Of a DNA stretch of 64,000 bases, positions 33,713 to 42,054 are shown in pieces. Under the pieces are notes generated by a model that saw only the letters and a list, made by a program, of their open reading frames with translations, was not told the DNA's origin and did not search any database. Position 1 is the stretch's first letter, and every line of letters starts with the position of its first letter. A program made the translations under genes and the position numbers. This DNA comes from Syntrophales bacterium (GTDB lineage Bacteria > Desulfobacterota > Syntrophia > Syntrophales > PHBD01): the NCBI GenBank assembly GCA_963668175.1, contig OY764159.1, forward strand, positions 2,080,001 to 2,144,000. The letters run 5' to 3'.

Positions 33713-34009
33713 ATGATTTCACTCGTTGCGAAAATGACGGTAAAAGAGGACAAGAGGGAAGAGGCCGTCGCGGCCATCAGGGAATTGGTCGCGGAGACGG
33801 CCAAGGAAGAGGGAACGCTGTTCTATACGGTGAACCGCGATCTCAAGAATCCGGACACGTTCGTTTTTATGGAACGCTACAGGGACAAAGCCGCCCTGGA
33901 TGCCCATGCGGCAAGCCCGCATTTCAAGGCGTTTTCCGCCAAATGCCCGGGGTTCATGGCCGGCAAGGCGGAGCTTACGAGGCTGGAAGAAATCCTTTCG
34001 GCCAAATAG
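33713..34009 (+). CDS. Antibiotic-biosynthesis / putative quinol monooxygenase (ABM domain)
   Basis: EEGTLFY...FVFMERY.D..ALDAH..SPHF; AGGAG RBS. Confidence 0.9.
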   Translation: MISLVAKMTVKEDKREEAVAAIRELVAETAKEEGTLFYTVNRDLKNPDTFVFMERYRDKAALDAHAASPHFKAFSAKCPGFMAGKAELTRLEEILSAK

Positions 34010-34172
34010 ACTGCTCTCGCCAAATGCCCGGGGTTCCTGGCCGGCAAGGCGGAGCTTACGAGGCTGGAAGAAATCCTTTCGGCCAAATAGACTGTTCCGC
34101 CAAATGCCCGGCGTTCCTGGCCGGCAAGGCGGAACTTACGAGGATGGAAAAAATCCTTCCGGCCAAATAGAC
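33937..34172 (+). repeat. Three tandem ~80-bp copies of the monooxygenase 3' end
   Basis: Units start at 33937, 34018 and 34098, each ending GCCAAATAGAC. Confidence 0.92.
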
Positions 34173-34177
34173 GGTTC

Positions 34178-34350
34178 CAACCGCCGCCGAAGCTGCCATA
34201 GCCTCGGCGGCGTCCCCGATATCCTCCCGCTGCCGTCCTCCAAAAACGACACCGCCGATATATCGTTCGCGCCCCGAAGGCGGCATCGCCGCCGACACCC
34301 CCACCCGCCCGGCCCGGATGACGGCCCCCGCCACCTGTCTACCCGCCGGA
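34178..34350 (+). pseudogene. Degenerate 3' fragment of a DUF362 gene
   Basis: cggcggcgtccccgatatc...tccaaaaacgacaccgcc and gacggccccc..gtctacccgcc resemble the ends of both DUF362 genes. Confidence 0.6.
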
Positions 34351-34582
34351 GCCTGCCGATACTCACGATCTTGATTGCGAAGAAGGGCTGGCTGTAAGCC
34401 TTTTGCCCAGACCATACAATACAGAAATAAGTATAAGATTTGTCATCATAATTATATTAAAAAGCATTATTGACATGGCGTGTGGAAAAGTGTAGATGTT
34501 ACTAATCCTCTCCTCATAGTATTTATTAAGTCAAGTAGATACATATCAACATAACAAGACCTTTATTTAGGGCCAAAACGAC

Positions 34583-35188
34583 ATGACAGAAGATGATCGG
34601 AAGAAGAAACGTTTCGATGTGGCTGTCCAAATCAGAAATTTTGAAATTAACTTGTTTTGGAAGAGATCCCTTTTCTTTTGGGGCTTCATTGCATCGGCAT
34701 TCGTTGGCTATGCAGCATTGAGTAAATATCAGTCAGACCTCTCTGTCATTGTGGCGTGTTTTGGTATGGTTTGCTCGTTTGCGTGGACACTCGTCAATCG
34801 AGGTTCCAAATACTGGCAGGAAAGCTGGGAAACAAAGGTTGAGAAGTATGAAGCCGTCCTAATCGGTGCACTTTTTGCGGAAGAGGAAGCAGTGCAGAGT
34901 CATAAAGGTTTTTGGCTAGGTGCTAGAAAATATTCCGTAAGCAAACTTGCGACAGCGTTAAGTGATTATGTTTTCGTCCTCTGGTTTATAATTGTAGTTA
35001 AAGATTTCATCAATCGTTACCTGATCATATGTAAGTATGCTTATCTGGAAGAAATCGGAATCACTTCTTTCGTCGTATTTTCATTCAGTTACTTATTGCT
35101 CTTATTATGGTGCGGCCGGAAGACATCACGACCTAAAAAGACGGAATTATCATCCAAATGGAATGTCTCAAACCGAAACCGTCCATAA
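34583..35188 (+). CDS. Small membrane protein (FEINLFWKRS...GSKYWQE family, RipA-like); first gene of the AT-rich island
   Basis: 4 hydrophobic segments; motifs recalled from a family found in defence islands. Confidence 0.65.
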   Translation: MTEDDRKKKRFDVAVQIRNFEINLFWKRSLFFWGFIASAFVGYAALSKYQSDLSVIVACFGMVCSFAWTLVNRGSKYWQESWETKVEKYEAVLIGALFAEEEAVQSHKGFWLGARKYSVSKLATALSDYVFVLWFIIVVKDFINRYLIICKYAYLEEIGITSFVVFSFSYLLLLLWCGRKTSRPKKTELSSKWNVSNRNRP

Positions 35189-35201
35189 ATCGAATAAATA
35201 A

Positions 35202-36162
35202 GTGGAAAATGATATGGACACGCTGACTTTGATTCAAATCAGTGATCTGCATATGCCAAGATTAATAGGAGAGCCGTCGAATATTGACTGGAAAGATAAG
35301 GGGTTTCCAAAACAATTAGGTCAGATAATAGTTACTCCTCGATGGCAAAGCGTAATGAGAGAATTGATAGATTATATTGAAAATAACCGACATTCAATCG
35401 GGGGAATTATTATCTGTGGTGATTTGACGGACAAAGGTGATTTATCAGGTTATGAGAATTGCTTAACATATTTAAATGAAACTCTGCAAATCGCCGATGA
35501 ACAAAGATGGCAAAAAAATCAAGTGCATATAGTTCCAGGGAATCACGATATTAACCGCAAGACGAATGATTCTAACAGTGGGGACATTTATCTCAAATTT
35601 GAACCATTAATCATGGCATGGCATAATTTAGGATTGCCAATCCTAACTACGAGAGGAGCTAGGCAGACACAAATGTCGGCGAATGGTAATAGTGTTGATG
35701 TTTTTTCAATAAATTCCTGTATTGGATGTGGTGAAAAGCGCTATATGCCCGCAGAAATTAAGGAGCAAATGCATGAAATGCTCAGGACAAACAATGAGTC
35801 TAATCTAATTTGGGAACAACTAGATACGCCAGCATTTTCAGAAGACGATATTAACAAGATTATAGCTAAAATCGATCAATTGTCCGGTTTGTCAGTGGGC
35901 GTGGTTGTAGCTCATCATAATTTATTGCCCCAAGTATCCCCCAGGCTTGAGATATACACGGAGGTTATCAATGGTGGCCTTGTGAGATCACGGTTGTCCC
36001 AGTGTAAACACCCCGTGATATATTGTCACGGGCATGTTCACGAAGATCCGATTGAAGTGGTGTTCAATGCAAGATCGAGGCGTAGCCGTCTGATTTCGAT
36101 AGCGTGTTCCAAGTTCACTGACGGATTCAACATCATTAAACTACATTTCTCCCGTCACGAGG
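35202..36162 (+). pseudogene. Calcineurin-like metallophosphoesterase, 5' part (interrupted by IS)
   Basis: SDLH, GDLTD, PGNHD, HH and HGHVH motifs; frame continues at 37497 once the IS is removed. Confidence 0.9.
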
Positions 36163-36257
36163 TGAAGTAGCCCCCAATTGAACCGGACACTTTGAATCTG
36201 GAAATAAGTTGTAGGAATAGATATAGAGATATTACTACAACCAGAAAGAAGGTGTTT

Positions 36258-36635
36258 ATGGTTCCTGTAGAAGTGATCGTCGGTGTACAGAGGCGACGTC
36301 GCTGGTCGGCTGCCGAGAAGAAGTCGATGGTGCGGGAGGCGGAGCAGCCGGGAATGAGCATCTCGGCTGTAGCCCGGAAGTATGACATCCATCCGAACCA
36401 GTTGTTCCACTGGCGCAGGCTTGCCGAAGAAGGGGCTCTGTCGGCGGTTGGTGCAGATGAAGGCGTCGTTCCTGCATCGGAAGCCAGAGAACTGAAAAAG
36501 CAGATCCGGGAGTTGGAGCGTCTTCTGGGCAAAAAGACAATGGAGGTGGAGATATTAAGGGAGGCTGTCCGGATTGCCCGTGAAAAAAAACTGATCTCGC
36601 GGTTGCCGTTGTTGCCGGAGGACGATTCCCGATGA
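36258..36635 (+). CDS. IS3-family transposase OrfA
   Basis: RRRWSAAEK...SISAVARKYDIHPNQLFHWRR HTH; A8 slippery run at 36583-36590. Confidence 0.93.
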   Translation: MVPVEVIVGVQRRRRWSAAEKKSMVREAEQPGMSISAVARKYDIHPNQLFHWRRLAEEGALSAVGADEGVVPASEARELKKQIRELERLLGKKTMEVEILREAVRIAREKKLISRLPLLPEDDSR

Positions 36636-37480
36636 AGACGGTTGTCGATACGCTGGACGTTTCCCGTTCCCGGCAGTACGAAAGGCAAGGGAAGGAAGCC
36701 GATTCGAGAAGCCGCCATTACAGGAGAGGCGACGATGGCAGATATCTTCTTCTGATCAGGCAGGTTATTGATAATCGTCCCAGTTACGGCTATCGGAGAG
36801 TAACGGCAAGAATCAACAAGCTTCTGGAACGTCAGGGGCATCCGGGAGTTAATCCCAAACGGATTTATCGTCTCATGAAGATGCACAATCTGCTTCTTCA
36901 GCGGCATACGGGTAGGCCGGCAAGGCTTCACGAGGGTAAGGTCACGACGAGACGGAGCGATCTTCGTTGGTGTTCTGATGCGTTTGAGATTGCCTGCTGG
37001 AATGGGGACCGTCTCCGGGTAGCGTTCAGCATGGATTGTTGCGACAGGGAAATCATGAGTTATATAGCCACGACAGGGGGCGTATCCGGCGACATGGTCA
37101 GGGACTTGATGGCGGAAGCCATTGAGGCCCGTTTCGGTATGATCAATCGGCTGCCTCACAGAATCCAGTGGCTGAGCGATAATGGTCCTGCGTACACCGC
37201 CAGGGAAACGAAAAGCTTTGGGCAGATGATGGGGCTTGAGGTTTGCACGACCCCGTTCTATAGCCCGGAATCGAACGGAATGGCCGAATCCTTTGTCAAG
37301 ACCTTCAAGAGGGATTATGTTCATCTGAATATCCTGACTGATGCCGAAACGGTCATGAAGCAACTGCCCGGATGGTTCGTAGACTACAATGAAAACCATC
37401 CGCACAAGGGATTGAAAATGATGTCGCCCAGGGAGTATAGGAGACATCAAAATAAGTTAGAACAGTGTCCGGTGAAATAG
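36632..37480 (+). CDS. IS3-family transposase OrfB (DDE), in -1 frame relative to OrfA
   Basis: YGYRR, WCSD, WLSDNG, SPESNGMAESFVKTFKRDY motifs. Confidence 0.95.
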   Translation: MKTVVDTLDVSRSRQYERQGKEADSRSRHYRRGDDGRYLLLIRQVIDNRPSYGYRRVTARINKLLERQGHPGVNPKRIYRLMKMHNLLLQRHTGRPARLHEGKVTTRRSDLRWCSDAFEIACWNGDRLRVAFSMDCCDREIMSYIATTGGVSGDMVRDLMAEAIEARFGMINRLPHRIQWLSDNGPAYTARETKSFGQMMGLEVCTTPFYSPESNGMAESFVKTFKRDYVHLNILTDAETVMKQLPGWFVDYNENHPHKGLKMMSPREYRRHQNKLEQCPVK

Positions 37481-37496
37481 GGGCAACTCCACGAGG

Positions 37497-37822
37497 TGCC
37501 TTTAGGATGTACAATTATTCCATATCGAGTTAGGAATGATGGATCTGTGAAAACCCAGGAAGAGATAAGTATTCCATTACGGACAAGTTTAGATACCCAA
37601 CTAATCTCAGATCAATTAACAAAGGCCATATTATCGAACATTAGACATGATTGGATTCGATTTGAAGAGATACGAAATGGAGTTGAGAGCCAGGGAACAT
37701 CAAAGCCGCAGAAGAAAACACTTGCGCATGCACTCAAAGAGCTTCAATGGCTCGGTTGCATCGAGATTAGGAATTCTGAAGAGGATGCGAAGCATTGGCA
37801 AGTCAAAAGGACGGAGTCATGA
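37497..37822 (+). pseudogene. 3' part of the interrupted metallophosphoesterase (wHTH-like tail)
   Basis: In frame with the 5' part (...FSRHE-VPLGC...); reconstructed protein is 428 aa. Confidence 0.85.
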
Positions 37823-39819
37823 TGAAATCGCCTTTTCAAACGGCCAGATTTGAATATGAAGGAGAACATCTCTATTTTTTGCCAACAAATTTCATGAATG
37901 TTCTTGAATTACCTAAACCCGTTTACTTGATAGGATCCAGGGGTACAGGAAAAACTACGCTTCTTAAGGCATTAAATTGGAATGAACGAATTAACAATAC
38001 TTCTTTGCAGCGACAATTGGGATCAGATATTTTTATTAAGAGGTATATTGGTGTCTACTTCAAATTGCCTGATCATCGCTTTGATGCCCTTGATGCGAAG
38101 CTGCAACAAGAAAATAAAGACTTAGGCAATTTGATAAGATCTTTATATATAGATGTACTTGGTTTACAGCTCCTTGTCGATGCCATTTCCGAATTAATCA
38201 TCAATAAAATCATTATGGCCACACCAAAAGACGAGCAGAAATGTGTAACGTCAATTCTTGAGGACTTTGAAGAGTGGTTTCAGCCAATCATTGAGAATAT
38301 ATTTTCAAAAAAGCCTGCAACATTAAAGAATCTTAATAATTTGTTTCGTAGTATTCAGTTGACGATTGAACGATATGCGATCTATGGAGGAGAAGCTTCA
38401 TCTGTCGCGTCTGATTACACTGGTCAAATTGGTGAATTTGGAAGATGCGTTGCAAAGCGACTCGGTGAACTGTGCAATATACAAATCGATGAACCGATGT
38501 ATAAATGGTTTTTCAAAATCTGTATGGACGAGGGTGAGTGTCTAAGCAATAACGACCGTCTGGTATTTAACACAATGACCCGTCTTTCAGAATGGCCACT
38601 ATTTCACGTAGTATGCTTTGTTGAACGTCCAGAGGATATATCGAGCACGTTGATTCCGAATTTAACATTGTCTGATGCTGATCGCACACTGATATTGCTT
38701 GAAGATATGACTGATAGGGAATTCCGAATTCTGGGAGAAGGAGTGGCGACAATTCGGATGCAAGAGTTGCTGGAAGATTTTACCGTTAAATTTGATACCA
38801 AGATGTGTTTAGGAAAATTGAATATAAATAAGATGGCGATGTCTATCTTGGAAGAATCAACAAGTAGAAAAGCAAAAGATCTTCTAGCGAATGCGCGTGA
38901 GAAAATGAAAGATCCCATTATTTGTAATATGCTCTCAGGAAAGGCTGATCAACGCGCGGATGATGAAGATACGCTGATCGAAAAAAGTGAAGAAATAAAT
39001 TTAGATCTACTGCCCATTTATCAGACGTATCTTATTCAGAAACTTAATTTGGTATTACCGACGCCCGATGATCCGCAGTGGGCGAGAAGAGCACAGGAAA
39101 GCGCAGAGTTGAGAAAGAAAATGGTGGCAGCATATTTATCACTATGTGATGAGATGGGGATGAATGTTCGTTATGCGACAGCTGATATGGTTCTGCAAAT
39201 GAGTGATAAATGTATTCGTGATTTCTTGACTTTTATACATGAAATATTCATCGAAAGCAAGTTCAGCCTACATAATTTTATAAAGAATCAAGTTCCAATG
39301 AAAATTCAGGATAAAGCAATTAAACATGCCAGCAATCTAAAGAGAAATTCGTTAAAGCAGTCTGGAATAATATCACCAACTGAAGCTGGGCGTATAATCG
39401 ATGCTCTCGCGAAAATTACTAAATATATTCAAACGAAGAGTCCAGATCTTTCTCATTTAGAGGCCACTGAAAGAGGAAAATTCACTTTATCAATGCAGCC
39501 AACAGAAAGGGAAATATTCACTTCGGTGTTAAAATTGATTAAAGATGCAGCTCAGGCAGGGTTTTTAATCATCTCTCAGGAGGGTGAATCAAAATGGAAA
39601 TTCAGGGTTCATACCTCACTGGCCGCATTTTTTGGTTTTTCATATCGTGGGGCGTACTATGATACACCTCTGGATATTAAGGAATTAGACGCTATCAGAC
39701 AGAGTTCTGACCTAGATGATTTTGAGAAGCATGTTGAGAAAATATCCAAGAGATTAGCAGGCTGGAAGAATGATATAGGAACCCTATTTGAGTGGAATAA
39801 AGATGGAAACAGTATTTAG
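37819..39819 (+). CDS. ORC/CDC6-like P-loop ATPase
   Basis: Walker A GSRGTGKTT; Walker B-like ICMDEGE; ATGA overlap with the upstream gene. Confidence 0.85.
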   Translation: MMKSPFQTARFEYEGEHLYFLPTNFMNVLELPKPVYLIGSRGTGKTTLLKALNWNERINNTSLQRQLGSDIFIKRYIGVYFKLPDHRFDALDAKLQQENKDLGNLIRSLYIDVLGLQLLVDAISELIINKIIMATPKDEQKCVTSILEDFEEWFQPIIENIFSKKPATLKNLNNLFRSIQLTIERYAIYGGEASSVASDYTGQIGEFGRCVAKRLGELCNIQIDEPMYKWFFKICMDEGECLSNNDRLVFNTMTRLSEWPLFHVVCFVERPEDISSTLIPNLTLSDADRTLILLEDMTDREFRILGEGVATIRMQELLEDFTVKFDTKMCLGKLNINKMAMSILEESTSRKAKDLLANAREKMKDPIICNMLSGKADQRADDEDTLIEKSEEINLDLLPIYQTYLIQKLNLVLPTPDDPQWARRAQESAELRKKMVAAYLSLCDEMGMNVRYATADMVLQMSDKCIRDFLTFIHEIFIESKFSLHNFIKNQVPMKIQDKAIKHASNLKRNSLKQSGIISPTEAGRIIDALAKITKYIQTKSPDLSHLEATERGKFTLSMQPTEREIFTSVLKLIKDAAQAGFLIISQEGESKWKFRVHTSLAAFFGFSYRGAYYDTPLDIKELDAIRQSSDLDDFEKHVEKISKRLAGWKNDIGTLFEWNKDGNSI

Positions 39820-40819
39820 ACAATCATATCTCAAAGGGACGTCAAACAGATTAAACGATGTAAAACAACTTGAGGGAAAATATGATTTGTTCATATGTGC
39901 CTCAAGTTGGGATGGGAGGTGTGTTTGTGTAACGGATTCAAAAATCAGTGTGGATTATGCTATTCCCATATTTTTCAGCGTACGAGATAACATGGGGCTT
40001 CGTGATAAATATGATAAACTGATTTTAAAATACTGCAAAAGAATAGCAGCAAGAACGATTCCTATATCAGGAGCGTCGATAAACGTTGAAATGATGTGGA
40101 ATGATTTACATAAAAATATTTTGACAATAATGGAGAGTGTGCATCGTCCTTTGGATATAATAATTGATATTTCAACGCTGCCACGATATTACTACGGTGC
40201 TATTTGTGCCTTAGGAATTAAGACGGGATTTGCTCATAAGATTACCTGTTTCTATGCTGAGGCAAACTATCCACCCCCCAATCAAGCAGAGCAGGAAATC
40301 GCATTCACAGGAGGCAGTTGGAGGGCAATTCCAATTCCCGGGCTATTGGGTGATTATGATCCGAGAAAGAAAAGATTTTACTTAGTTTCAATTGGTTTTG
40401 AAGGATGGAAAACACTTCGTGTCGTTTCAAGGGCTGATCCAGAAAGAGTATCAATATTATTTCCTGATCCCGGATTTGATATGGAATATCCTGATAGAAC
40501 ACTAAATAATAATCAAGAACTGATCTGGCAATACAAAGTACCTGATACACAAGTCGTAAAAGCACATGCTGGTGATGCAATAGGAGCTTGGAAAGCGCTG
40601 AGCATTAATTCAGTAGAGAGGGCTGAAGAGGAGAATACATATTATCTCTGCAGTGGCACAAAACCGCATTCATTAGCCATGATTTTAAGGGCTATGGCGC
40701 TCAAATATCCAGTCGTCCTCTACAATCGGCCTGATGAACATAATGTAGTATTAATTGAGCCGAATGGAAAATATTGGAAATATGAAATTAAAGATTTAAC
40801 GGTATGTCGATATGAGTGA
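39803..40819 (+). CDS. Hypothetical Rossmann-like protein, partner of the ATPase
   Basis: IIIDISTLPR, SIGFEG and SGTKPHSL motifs; overlaps both neighbours. Confidence 0.75.
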   Translation: METVFRQSYLKGTSNRLNDVKQLEGKYDLFICASSWDGRCVCVTDSKISVDYAIPIFFSVRDNMGLRDKYDKLILKYCKRIAARTIPISGASINVEMMWNDLHKNILTIMESVHRPLDIIIDISTLPRYYYGAICALGIKTGFAHKITCFYAEANYPPPNQAEQEIAFTGGSWRAIPIPGLLGDYDPRKKRFYLVSIGFEGWKTLRVVSRADPERVSILFPDPGFDMEYPDRTLNNNQELIWQYKVPDTQVVKAHAGDAIGAWKALSINSVERAEEENTYYLCSGTKPHSLAMILRAMALKYPVVLYNRPDEHNVVLIEPNGKYWKYEIKDLTVCRYE

Positions 40820-41663
40820 TGAGAATCAACCGGTTTTCCCCATCCTAAAATGGCCGGGGGGAAAGTCATGGTTAGCCGAGAGACTTAGTCAGATTATTGG
40901 AGATGAGATTGCTACTAATGGCACATATTATGAGCCATTCTTAGGTGCAGGTTCTATATATTTCTATTTTCGACCAGAAAAGAGTATCTTGTCAGATGTA
41001 AATCCAGCACTGATAAATTTTTATAAATGTCTGAGAAATAATTCAGATAAGATTATTAAACGTGTGTGGTCATTTTCGAATAAAAGCGAATGTTATTATA
41101 AAGTGCGGAATATGCACCCTCGAACAGACATTGGAGAATCTGCGAGATTTCTATACCTAAATAAAACATGCTGGGGTGGTGTGTATAGACTGAATCAAAA
41201 AGGTGAATATAATGTACCATTTGGTAATTCAGGGAGGAAAATATGCAGTCGCAATAGGGTCTTAGCTGCTGCGGACGCTTTGCGCAATGCAACTCTGATA
41301 TGCTCAGATTTTGAACCTATAATGACAGCGGCTAAGAATGGAGATTGTATATACGCCGATCCACCATATAGTACCTTAGGGCAGAACAACGGATTCCTCC
41401 GGTATAATGAGAGATTATTCAAGTGGTCAGATCAACAAAGACTTGCCAGATCATGCCGAGATTCTGCCGATAGGGGTGCATTTGTCGCGATAAGTGCACT
41501 TTGGCATGATGATATATTAAAGTTGTTCCCTGATTGGTGGGCATGGAAAATAGAAAGAAAGTCACTAATAAGCAGAAAAATTGAAGGGCGTCGTTCAATT
41601 TGTGAAGTTGTTATATTCAGTAATAAGCCGGGATCGATATCAGAAAACATTACAAAAATATAA
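40812..41663 (+). CDS. D12-class (Dam-like) N6-adenine DNA methyltransferase
   Basis: LKWPGGK, YEPFLGAGS, NVPFG and YADPPY motifs. Confidence 0.95.
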   Translation: MSDENQPVFPILKWPGGKSWLAERLSQIIGDEIATNGTYYEPFLGAGSIYFYFRPEKSILSDVNPALINFYKCLRNNSDKIIKRVWSFSNKSECYYKVRNMHPRTDIGESARFLYLNKTCWGGVYRLNQKGEYNVPFGNSGRKICSRNRVLAAADALRNATLICSDFEPIMTAAKNGDCIYADPPYSTLGQNNGFLRYNERLFKWSDQQRLARSCRDSADRGAFVAISALWHDDILKLFPDWWAWKIERKSLISRKIEGRRSICEVVIFSNKPGSISENITKI

Positions 41664-42054
41664 AAAATGAGAGGCTGGATTCAATTAGATTAGCAGAAAA
41701 TAACAGAAATCCGATCATATTTTAAAACACGAATGATGAATTTTTTGTACAGTAGCGGTATTCACCTAACAGTCACCCCTGCGCGGGGATAGATATTCAG
41801 GCTGCCTTTTTCTCTTCTCTATAATCTTCGCATTCGATCCATAATCCTTTTGAAAAGCCCCCCCCACCCCCAAAATCCCCCAAAATAGTCCTGCCCTTTT
41901 TGCCGCTCTTCAAGTAGAATGACCGGACGGGCAGTACGGGCGGCTTGGCGTCCGGCCGGGATGTCGTACGGGATATCGGCCGGGCGGCGCGCCCTCGCAA
42001 CGGATAACGCCTGCGCGCAGGCAATACATATCGGGTGGACCGGAGGTTTTCGCA

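Follow-up and report, generated by a model that had tools for sequence, protein, structure and literature searches.

Which genes of a low-GC island in a Syntrophales genome belong together, and what might they do? The question arises from a 64,000-nucleotide stretch of DNA (contig OY764159.1, positions 2,080,001 to 2,144,000, assembly GCA_963668175.1), here called the window, in whose numbering coordinates are given unless another locus is named. The original prediction for this locus proposed an undescribed defence system consisting of a membrane protein, a metallophosphoesterase with a winged helix-turn-helix (wHTH), an ORC-CDC6-like ATPase, a Rossmann-like protein and a Dam-family methylase. 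By comparing gene order, sequence divergence, protein families and structure models across related loci, we find that four of these genes (encoding the phosphoesterase, the ATPase, a tandem-CARF protein of the CARF6 clade and the methylase) are, as judged from sequence comparison, a real conserved cassette, and that the island copy is a member, inactivated by an insertion sequence (IS), of a widespread family that is catalogued but experimentally untried. As to function, we give roughly even credence to the reading that this is a horizontally mobile, probably anti-phage, methylation-linked cassette of a modular family built on an ATPase and a tandem-CARF protein.

Gene order in the island and in related loci

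All the genes concerned are contained in a strain-variable island (34325..41873) that is delimited by a drop in GC content and by a contig that skips it. GC is 0.38-0.39 over approximately 34400-41800, as against 0.64-0.69 in the flanks; a block of 0.52 inside the island (36163-37491) is the insertion sequence. Five co-oriented genes are carried on the plus strand, with open reading frames (ORFs) at 34583-35188, 35202-36170, 37496-37822, 37819 (ATG)-39819, 39803-40819 and 40812-41663. The ATPase gene overlaps both its neighbours, the phosphoesterase gene through an ATGA at 37819/37822 and the CARF gene by 17 nt at 39803/39819, and the CARF and methylase genes overlap by 8 nt at 40812/40819. 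Both the AT-rich island with its five co-oriented genes and these three overlaps had been claimed in the original prediction, and both are present in the composition and the ORF map.

Scanning metagenomes with the CARF6 alignment yielded 45 loci, from which two with 30-residue chance matches (L052, L053) were dropped to leave 43, and neighbouring genes were called by tblastn with the window's proteins. The ATPase gene is directly upstream of CARF6 in all 29 metagenome loci whose sequence extends more than about 150 bp in that direction, and the phosphoesterase gene is upstream of the ATPase gene in all 22 that reach that far. A methylase gene is found in 37 of the 43, usually right after CARF6 (it precedes the phosphoesterase gene in L013 and L035, and is on the other strand in L026); three of the six loci without one end at most 301 bp from CARF6 and are hence uninformative. 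There are near-duplicates among the loci, at least four pairs of them (L016/17, L029/30, L041/43, L042/46), and therefore the independent lineages are fewer than the loci. The divergence of the three downstream genes was compared by an identity-matrix test on 15 of the 37 methylase loci, chosen for complete, non-duplicate CARF6 and methylase ORFs: the correlations were r 0.81 for ATPase and CARF6 (reached by 1 of 2000 permutations), r 0.66 for CARF6 and methylase (0 of 2000) and r 0.58 for ATPase and methylase (3 of 2000), which would fit the co-inheritance of ATPase, CARF6 and methylase as a unit.

CARF6 and the methylase are also fused in frame in one soil lineage, represented by two identical sequences (L042:7998-9866 and L046:3-1412); CARF6 of L042 has an early stop, and the ATPase match in that locus spans only the C-terminal half. 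The order phosphoesterase-ATPase-CARF6 is kept down to 25% identity, the level at which it is found, with overlapping genes, in all three Rhizobiales plasmids examined. The third gene of these plasmid copies is CARF6 by PADLOC, and the Sinorhizobium-type copy (S. meliloti plasmid) matches a PADLOC CARF6 model at 2.9e-216, this being that model's source family. Conserved order and correlated divergence across loci thus bear out the grouping of ATPase, phosphoesterase and methylase with the CARF protein.

The cassette belongs to a wider family that can be followed through its ATPase. PF24389 was found in 7 of 400 other genomes of the same phylum (8/401 with the host's own), and all seven ATPases adjoin or are fused to CARF6, once parted by a contig end. 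The effector slot is occupied by PRTase-CE in three of them, a Metallophos protein in one and a fused kinase in three. The arrangements are PRTase-CE-ATPase followed by the contig end (G202); HAD-PRTase-CE-ATPase-CARF6 (G093, G309); D12 methylase-Metallophos-ATPase-CARF6 (G241); N6_N4 methylase-kinase::ATPase-CARF6 (G342); kinase::ATPase-CARF6-DruA (G023); and a single 1222-aa Ser/Thr kinase::ATPase::CARF6 fusion (G145, L079:2645-6737; PADLOC PDLC01925, E = 0), which is directly followed by a Vsr-type mismatch endonuclease gene. Since the partners vary while the ATPase and CARF6 recur, these two are the constant core of the family, around which effector and modification gene can be exchanged. 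The adjacent accessions of PF24389 and PF24390 (PRTase-CE) suggest a common source.

The surroundings of related loci are typical of defence islands: their flanks contain Mrr, AbiV, Schlafen/AlbA_2-HATPase, CAP12-type TIR and DndB genes, and further ParB_N with PRTase-CE, AbiE and toxin-antitoxin pairs. The ATPase matches 34 plasmid records, of which 30 are typed conjugative, and 2 predicted viral contigs carry the cassette. Its distribution in the phylum is sporadic (2/401 genomes for the CARF6 clade, 8/401 for PF24389) and looks driven by horizontal gene transfer. Other neighbours are recorded here as observations. In one locus (L025:6444-8863) the neighbours of the cassette include a TIR gene of CAP12/Pycsar type and the gene of another, distinct metallophosphoesterase, to which a prokaryotic YEATS domain is fused. 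In four others (L005:10183-11121, L013:9035-10012, L019:4732-6141, L026:978-4130) thymidylate synthase or dUTPase/dCTP-deaminase-like genes adjoin it, the thymidylate synthase being either ThyX or a protein in which Thymidylat_synt is fused with MtrA and pterin-binding domains; this links the cassette, for no evident reason, to the metabolism of pyrimidine nucleotides.

How far is such a cassette undescribed? That word holds in part: the components are catalogued (Pfam PF24389, PADLOC CARF6), and no named system or experiment was found for the family in a literature search, the available passages of papers that mention ORC-CDC6-like not describing this cassette. The companion claim, that the gene order matches neither BREX, DISARM nor another named system, agrees with the PADLOC results, in which matches to such systems are limited to P-loop or phosphoesterase motifs.

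The four component proteins

The predicted nucleotide sensor is a single-chain tandem-CARF protein of 338 aa (39803..40819, plus strand). It has no Pfam match; 11 PADLOC CARF6 models match it, the best being PDLC01922 (1.4e-17, residues 19-329). An AlphaFold2 model was obtained at a mean predicted local distance difference test (pLDDT) of 95.4 and compared with 48,161 chains in a VIA-align wide search, in which 12 of the 13 top rows were named CARF or SAVED proteins. The best match is Can1 (6sce: Z 11.9, root-mean-square deviation (rmsd) 3.9, 238 aligned, covering both lobes), followed by single-chain Csm6 (9w3u: Z 11.5, rmsd 5.2, 242 aligned); the C-lobe (residues 189-313) matches the CARF domains of Can2, Card1, Cam1 and Csa3 at Z 9.5-10.9, and SAVED domains match over both lobes at Z 7-8. 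Foldseek gave only low-scoring tandem-Rossmann matches (template modelling score 0.2-0.3). Because the CARF6 models, the confident structure model and the Can1, Csm6 and SAVED fold matches agree, the protein is a two-lobed, single-chain protein of CARF/SAVED type, as the suggestion of a CARF-like ligand sensor had anticipated. Residues that are invariant or nearly so follow directly on predicted strands (S35/W36/D37/R39, D122/S124/P127/R128, G198/G201/T204 and G285/K287/P288/H289), and these positions may form the ligand pocket, as ligand-binding loops of CARF proteins come after the first and fourth strands of each lobe. The CARF6 profile matches 1368 representative clusters among 1.84 billion at E <= 0.001, 515 at <= 1e-10 and 229 at <= 1e-30; the clade of the window's protein is rare in its own phylum, the count of two genomes given above including the host. 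A search for longer, fused CARF6 forms found none, which is weak evidence.

The predicted switch is an ORC-CDC6-like AAA+ ATPase (37819..39819, plus strand), which matches PF24389 over residues 18-611 of 666 (1.9e-47; 162.7 bits against a cut-off of 27). With a score above the gathering threshold and intact Walker A and B motifs it is a member of that family. The Walker motifs, A (GxRGxGKTT) and B (DExE), do not vary among 26 homologues, the invariant residues being G38, R40, G41, G43, K44, T45, T46, D236, E237 and E239. A search of solved structures with the ATPase profile gave matches of P-loop length only; a genome scan with the ATPase alignment, dominated by the Walker A pattern, returned a single locus (L001); and no ATPase match was found among 50,697 phage genome records.

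The predicted effector is a metallophosphoesterase-wHTH protein whose gene is in two pieces. The 5' part (35202..36162, plus strand; PF00149, 1.6e-08, 35.6 bits against a cut-off of 21.5) keeps all five metal-binding motifs, and its ORF as it stands continues into the insertion sequence to a stop at 36168-36170; the 3' part (37492..37822, plus strand) encodes the last catalytic beta-strands and the C-terminal winged helix, and aligns to the C-terminal third of homologues. The motifs GDxH (SDLH in the island copy), GD, GNHD, HH and GHxH are conserved (alignment A3) and, together with the fold of a homologue, place the protein among the calcineurin-like metallophosphoesterases. That fold was obtained by modelling an intact homologue from locus L012, which is 47% identical (pLDDT 85.2). 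The model is calcineurin-like and best matches purple acid phosphatase (7ov8, Z 21.3) and SMPDL3B (5kar, Z 21.1), with GpdQ (2dxl, Z 20.9) and the cyclic-nucleotide phosphodiesterase Rv0805 (3ib7, Z 20.7) close behind; Mre11/SbcD match it over 224-230 residues. Its residues 360-436 match the wHTH regulator RosR (6ez1: Z 9.4, rmsd 2.6, 73 aligned). As far as a model can indicate, the fold leaves the substrate of the effector undecided.

Sequence profiles give only partial relatives of this effector. The nearest NCBIfam models, DS-9A (DS9_1, 4.8e-13) and DS-8 (3e-07), match at motif level only, aligning the first 70-115 residues and missing their equivalog cut-offs (48.8 vs 420 and 28.6 vs 790, respectively). 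The PADLOC 'Effector Endonuclease' model matches the motif region (1e-09), and the 3' part weakly matches the tail of the PADLOC CARF3 model (6.6e-4). PF24408, a wHTH family occurring with calcineurin-like proteins, matched none of 18 rows at E <= 1 (16 full-length homologues and the window's two pieces, one of which covers the C-terminal region), and a sequence search of solved structures with the intact L012 phosphoesterase gave no match.

The fourth component is a Dam-family N6-adenine DNA methyltransferase (40812..41663, plus strand); in this clade of the cassette it counts as part of the core. It matches the D12 methylase family PF02086 (5.7e-42; 144.6 bits against a cut-off of 22) and TIGR00571 'dam' (202 bits against 114.85), to which it belongs by score, by its DPPY motif and by its FxGxG S-adenosylmethionine loop; it misses the equivalog cut-off for E. 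coli Dam (129.6 vs 441). D183, Y186, E41, P42, F43 and G45 are invariant in 21 sequences, and P184 is conserved in at least 90%. The host genome has no other D12 methylase. No restriction-nuclease family was detected in the island with Pfam, PADLOC or NCBIfam, in agreement with the description of a D12 methylase that has no recognisable restriction nuclease beside it.

The insertion sequence, the island and its other gene

An IS3-family insertion sequence of 1329 bp (36163..37491, plus strand) divides a single phosphoesterase gene into the two pieces. The element has overlapping orfA (36192-36635; HTH_Tnp_1, 2.3e-19) and orfB (36632-37480; rve, 1.1e-14), its ends are TG...CA, and the 5-bp target duplication beside it reads CGAGG (36158-36162 and 37492-37496); together these features assign it to the IS3 family. 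When the element and one duplicate are left out, the phosphoesterase frame continues (...HEV|PLGC...) and equals the consensus of intact homologues, and both halves are in one ORF in all 14 related loci in which both were detected. Read ends are loose at 36162/36163 and 37491/37492; no IS-free junction contig was seen, which is uninformative, as Logan contigs break at the repeat. Six full copies of the element, the island copy included, are found in the genome at 99-100% identity, all with TG...CA ends and each with its own 5-bp target duplication, so that the element looks recently active; the other five are at G000:C1 525259, 1667139, 2148602, 2402859 and 2741419, one of them only about 4.6 kb past the right end of the window.

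The insertion cuts the effector between its catalytic motifs and its last beta-strands and winged helix: the truncated product keeps the five metal-binding motifs and loses the rest. On the evidence of its sequence, the cassette is dead or crippled in the host genome, its effector gene cut by an active IS3-family element. The same cassette is broken twice in a metagenome-assembled genome labelled Candidatus Multivoradales (L001:8530-15833), in which an ISL3 transposase splits the ATPase gene and a Transposase_29 gene reads through into the CARF6 gene. IS disruption in these two genome-level copies suggests that the cassette carries a cost.

The island is foreign to the host genome, and it is variable among strains, because a minor contig of run X1 (depth 3.3, vs 16-21) joins 34324 to 41874 and omits all 7.5 kb; the source of this contig is a strain or subpopulation of that sample from which the island is missing altogether. 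No integrase or flanking direct repeat of the island was found, nor an att-like repeat at its right end, and the window contains no tRNA. Promoter-like sites numbered 28 (18.8 +/- 4.3 in shuffles), an excess that AT-rich DNA would give anyway, and no plus-strand terminator was seen within the island; no conclusion here draws on either scan. Some observations concern the borders and other sequencing runs. Just left of the island, at 33937-34177, are three tandem copies, each of 80-81 nt, of the 3' end of an ABM-monooxygenase gene (33713-34009), including its stop codon, with copies 2 and 3 being 98% and 90% identical to copy 1; they may be the footprint of repeated integration at the end of this gene. 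The island-free contig skips two of the copies too (joint 34016 to 34182) and also differs at 34224-34280. Run X5, labelled as a different organism, has short identical pieces of the island (34065-35026 and 39404-39721, depth 2-12), and pieces of the IS at depth 20-30.

The first gene of the island encodes an 8xMP membrane protein of 201 aa (34583..35188, plus strand), which matches PF24838 at 1.8e-30 (106 bits against a gathering score of 30) and is hence assigned to that family; in the Atlas its cluster is automatically named 'RipA family octameric membrane protein'. Tblastn detected no homologue of it in 53 loci, Pfam none in 100 flanking ORFs, and its plasmid relatives have unrelated neighbours. 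Its absence from related loci therefore makes it a neighbour rather than a component: it was rejected as part of the system or as a second effector, contrary to the original prediction, and has travelled in the same island outside the system. The closest plasmid relative (56% identity) is on a Bacillus subtilis plasmid, beside a phospholipase-D-like gene, and a low-GC origin fits at least this part of the island. A sequence search of solved structures with the protein gave no match, and a literature search on 8xMP, or the PF24838 octameric membrane protein, found nothing relevant.

Proposed function and competing readings

What might an intact cassette do? The comparisons show conserved linkage, intact catalytic motifs, a nucleotide-sensor fold, surroundings of defence genes and the swapping of effectors; from these we infer the whole functional scheme (methylation logic, switch and effector action), and it runs as follows. 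The Dam-family methylase would mark the host's own DNA while being linked, physically or through regulation, to the sensor module; the ATPase and the CARF protein would act together as a nucleotide-gated co-sensor, detecting a sign of infection that depends on methylation. The simplest such sign would be the entry of unmethylated DNA, on the model of BREX. The ATPase would then activate the calcineurin-like phosphoesterase-wHTH effector, which would hydrolyse nucleotides (less likely DNA) and so halt phage replication. The natural CARF6-methylase fusion and the translational coupling of the genes suggest that the methylase is in the complex; a complex prediction for CARF6 (A2) with the methylase (A4) scored 0.00 and 0.00, which is evidence in neither direction. 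Because the exchangeable effectors are not nucleases, methylation would serve sensing, and not self-protection from a nuclease.

This scheme has its closest parallel in BREX type 1, which is described as combining an N6-methyladenine (m6A) methylase, the ORC/Cdc6-clade AAA+ ATPase BrxC and the phosphoesterase-superfamily protein PglZ, with no classical nuclease (10.1101/2025.10.09.681413). The likeness lies in the m6A methylase, the ORC/Cdc6-clade ATPase and the phosphoesterase, and in a logic of methylation self-marking that the cassette would share. The parts themselves, however, are not homologous, and the PADLOC BREX models match none of the six proteins; the cassette has a methylase of the small Dam type and not PglX, a calcineurin-like and not an alkaline-phosphatase-like phosphoesterase, a CARF sensor that BREX is without, and four genes as against six or more. 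Nearer in composition are the unnamed predicted conflict cassettes (PF24389 with PADLOC PDLC01910-01925, and PRTase-CE PF24390, a kinase or a metallophosphoesterase), which have the same order of effector, ATPase and CARF6, often with a DNA methylase; among these the island copy is a metallophosphoesterase-wHTH and Dam version, broken by an IS. Of other systems, MADS is not matched in its mad1-mad8 set, its only match being one of P-loop length to mad8 (residues 32-72, 4.4e-4). The sensor resembles the CARF effectors of type III CRISPR (Can1, Csm6, Can2/Card1) and the SAVED proteins of CBASS (Cap4, Cap5) in having two Can1/SAVED-like Rossmann-like lobes in one chain, and differs from them in having no fused effector domain and in not being beside cas genes. 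Similarly, the methylase shares TIGR00571 membership and the conserved DPPY and SAM-binding motifs with orphan or type II Dam-family methylases, but is embedded in, and co-diverges with, a cassette that is not of restriction-modification (R-M) type.

Several observations count against the proposed scheme. A methylase is missing from three loci with more than 1 kb downstream of CARF6 (L014, L015, L048), the Rhizobiales plasmid copies have none adjacent, and neither do the PRTase-CE versions, so that methylation is not family-wide; correlated divergence of the cassette genes would also be given by shared vertical descent. The best structural matches of the effector are small-molecule phosphodiesterases (Z 20.7-21.3), yet Mre11/SbcD come next at Z 16.4-17.7. 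The cassette contains no cyclase for a CARF ligand, and the complete host genome has no match to Cmr2-type Cas10 (TIGR02577) or to SMODS (PF18144), its sole Csm1-type (TIGR02578) match scoring 21 bits against a cut-off of 170. The CARF ligand therefore does not come from those sources here, and the partner cyclase expected of the CARF/SAVED superfamily is lacking from both cassette and genome. That the ATPase reads methylation is something we infer by analogy, and the literature search found no experiment on any member of the family. With these points weighed, the BREX-like reading ranks first, before a methylome-derived alarm, a true nuclease R-M system and, last, a non-immune role.

The absence of a cyclase from cassette and genome also favours the second of these readings, which we consider fairly unlikely. 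Here a phage would degrade the m6A-marked chromosome, the resulting m6A mono- or oligonucleotides would bind the CARF protein, and the ATPase would activate the phosphoesterase to deplete (deoxy)nucleoside triphosphates, the outcome being abortive infection and not restriction. There is a precedent in PUA-Calcineurin-CE-HAD, which is reported to respond to m6-dAMP from Dam-methylated DNA and to deplete dNTPs (PMC12871103). The best NCBIfam match of our effector, partial as it is, is the DS9_1 model of that system; CARF and SAVED domains, to which the fold of our sensor is matched, are nucleotide sensors, and the cassette methylase is the host's only D12 methylase. The methylase-less copies examined are on Hyphomicrobiales plasmids, and Hyphomicrobiales hosts carry the m6A methylase CcrM. 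Against this, no CARF is known to bind a methylated mononucleotide; the CARF6-methylase fusion and translational coupling argue for a physical complex for which an alarm has no need; the effector's winged helix and the ORC-like ATPase point to contact with DNA; and related cassettes use an N6_N4 methylase (G342), or have DruA or HAD where the methylase would be. In its fullest form, which we rate as unlikely, the cassette would be a portable 'methylome alarm' that installs its own Dam mark, with a cyclase-independent CARF sensing m6A breakdown products and the ORC-like ATPase switching on a nucleotide-depleting phosphoesterase.

The experimentally validated anti-phage systems DS-9 (PUA-Calcineurin-CE-HAD) and DS-8, to whose phosphoesterases the effector comes nearest by name, share with the cassette a calcineurin-like phosphoesterase effector and a sensor, and DS-8 also a P-loop NTPase; the metallophosphatase-NACHT system DS-8 is described as SMPDL3A-like, next to the SMPDL3B-like fold of our effector (Z 21.1), and PUA-Cal-HAD shares the link to Dam methylation. 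The island, in contrast, has no PUA, HAD or NACHT domain, the sensor of the cassette is a CARF protein with an ORC-like ATPase, and the methylase is encoded inside the cassette. Catalytic mutants of the DS-9A and DS-8 metallophosphatases are reported to lose defence (PMC13092281).

Could the effector instead be a nuclease, making the cassette an unusual R-M system? The phosphoesterase-wHTH protein would then be an Mre11/SbcD-like DNA nuclease, the ATPase a motor or clamp, the CARF protein a regulator, and Dam the protection of the host. The tight linkage of the methylase, the Mre11/SbcD matches to the effector model, the winged helix of DNA-binding type fused to the enzyme and the match to the PADLOC 'Effector Endonuclease' model all speak for it. 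We nevertheless think it quite unlikely, as purple acid phosphatase, SMPDL3B, GpdQ and Rv0805 are structurally closer, sister cassettes swap in PRTase-CE or a protein kinase, which are not DNA-cutting enzymes, and methylase-less plasmid copies would be self-toxic. A classical type II system in particular would have an endonuclease family beside the methylase, where none was detected; the phosphoesterase, with its Mre11/SbcD matches at Z 16-18, might itself in principle cleave DNA. Very unlikely, finally, is a role outside immunity, as a selfish addiction or epigenetic module of mobile elements or as an orphan regulatory methylase with genes of nucleotide metabolism or signalling: the plasmid records (34, 30 of them conjugative) and 2 predicted viral contigs, and the repeated thymidylate synthase, dUTPase or dCTP-deaminase-like neighbours (L005, L013, L019, L026), are compatible with it, but the flanks are rich in known defence genes, effector-slot swapping is the pattern of conflict systems, and the distribution is sporadic and resembles horizontal transfer (2/401, 8/401).

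Returning to the methylation-linked, probably anti-phage cassette as the preferred reading, the island copy is broken: it serves to point to the family and to illustrate inactivation by an IS, and is not itself a working system. For the family, the interest lies in the sensor. How CARF and SAVED sensors work is understood only where a Cas10 or CD-NTase cyclase acts upstream of them. The CARF6 clade is instead linked to an ORC/Cdc6-like ATPase and a methylase, and no cyclase is apparent. If the alarm reading were true, CARF6 would be the first CARF sensor of a signal derived from damage and not enzymatically synthesised, and the cassette the first defence system to create the substrate of its own danger signal. 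The ligand of CARF6 and the role of the methylase would show how a nucleotide sensor works without a dedicated signal synthase, and the same answers would distinguish methylation used for reading non-self, as in BREX, from methylation used for generating an alarm, as in PUA-Cal-HAD.

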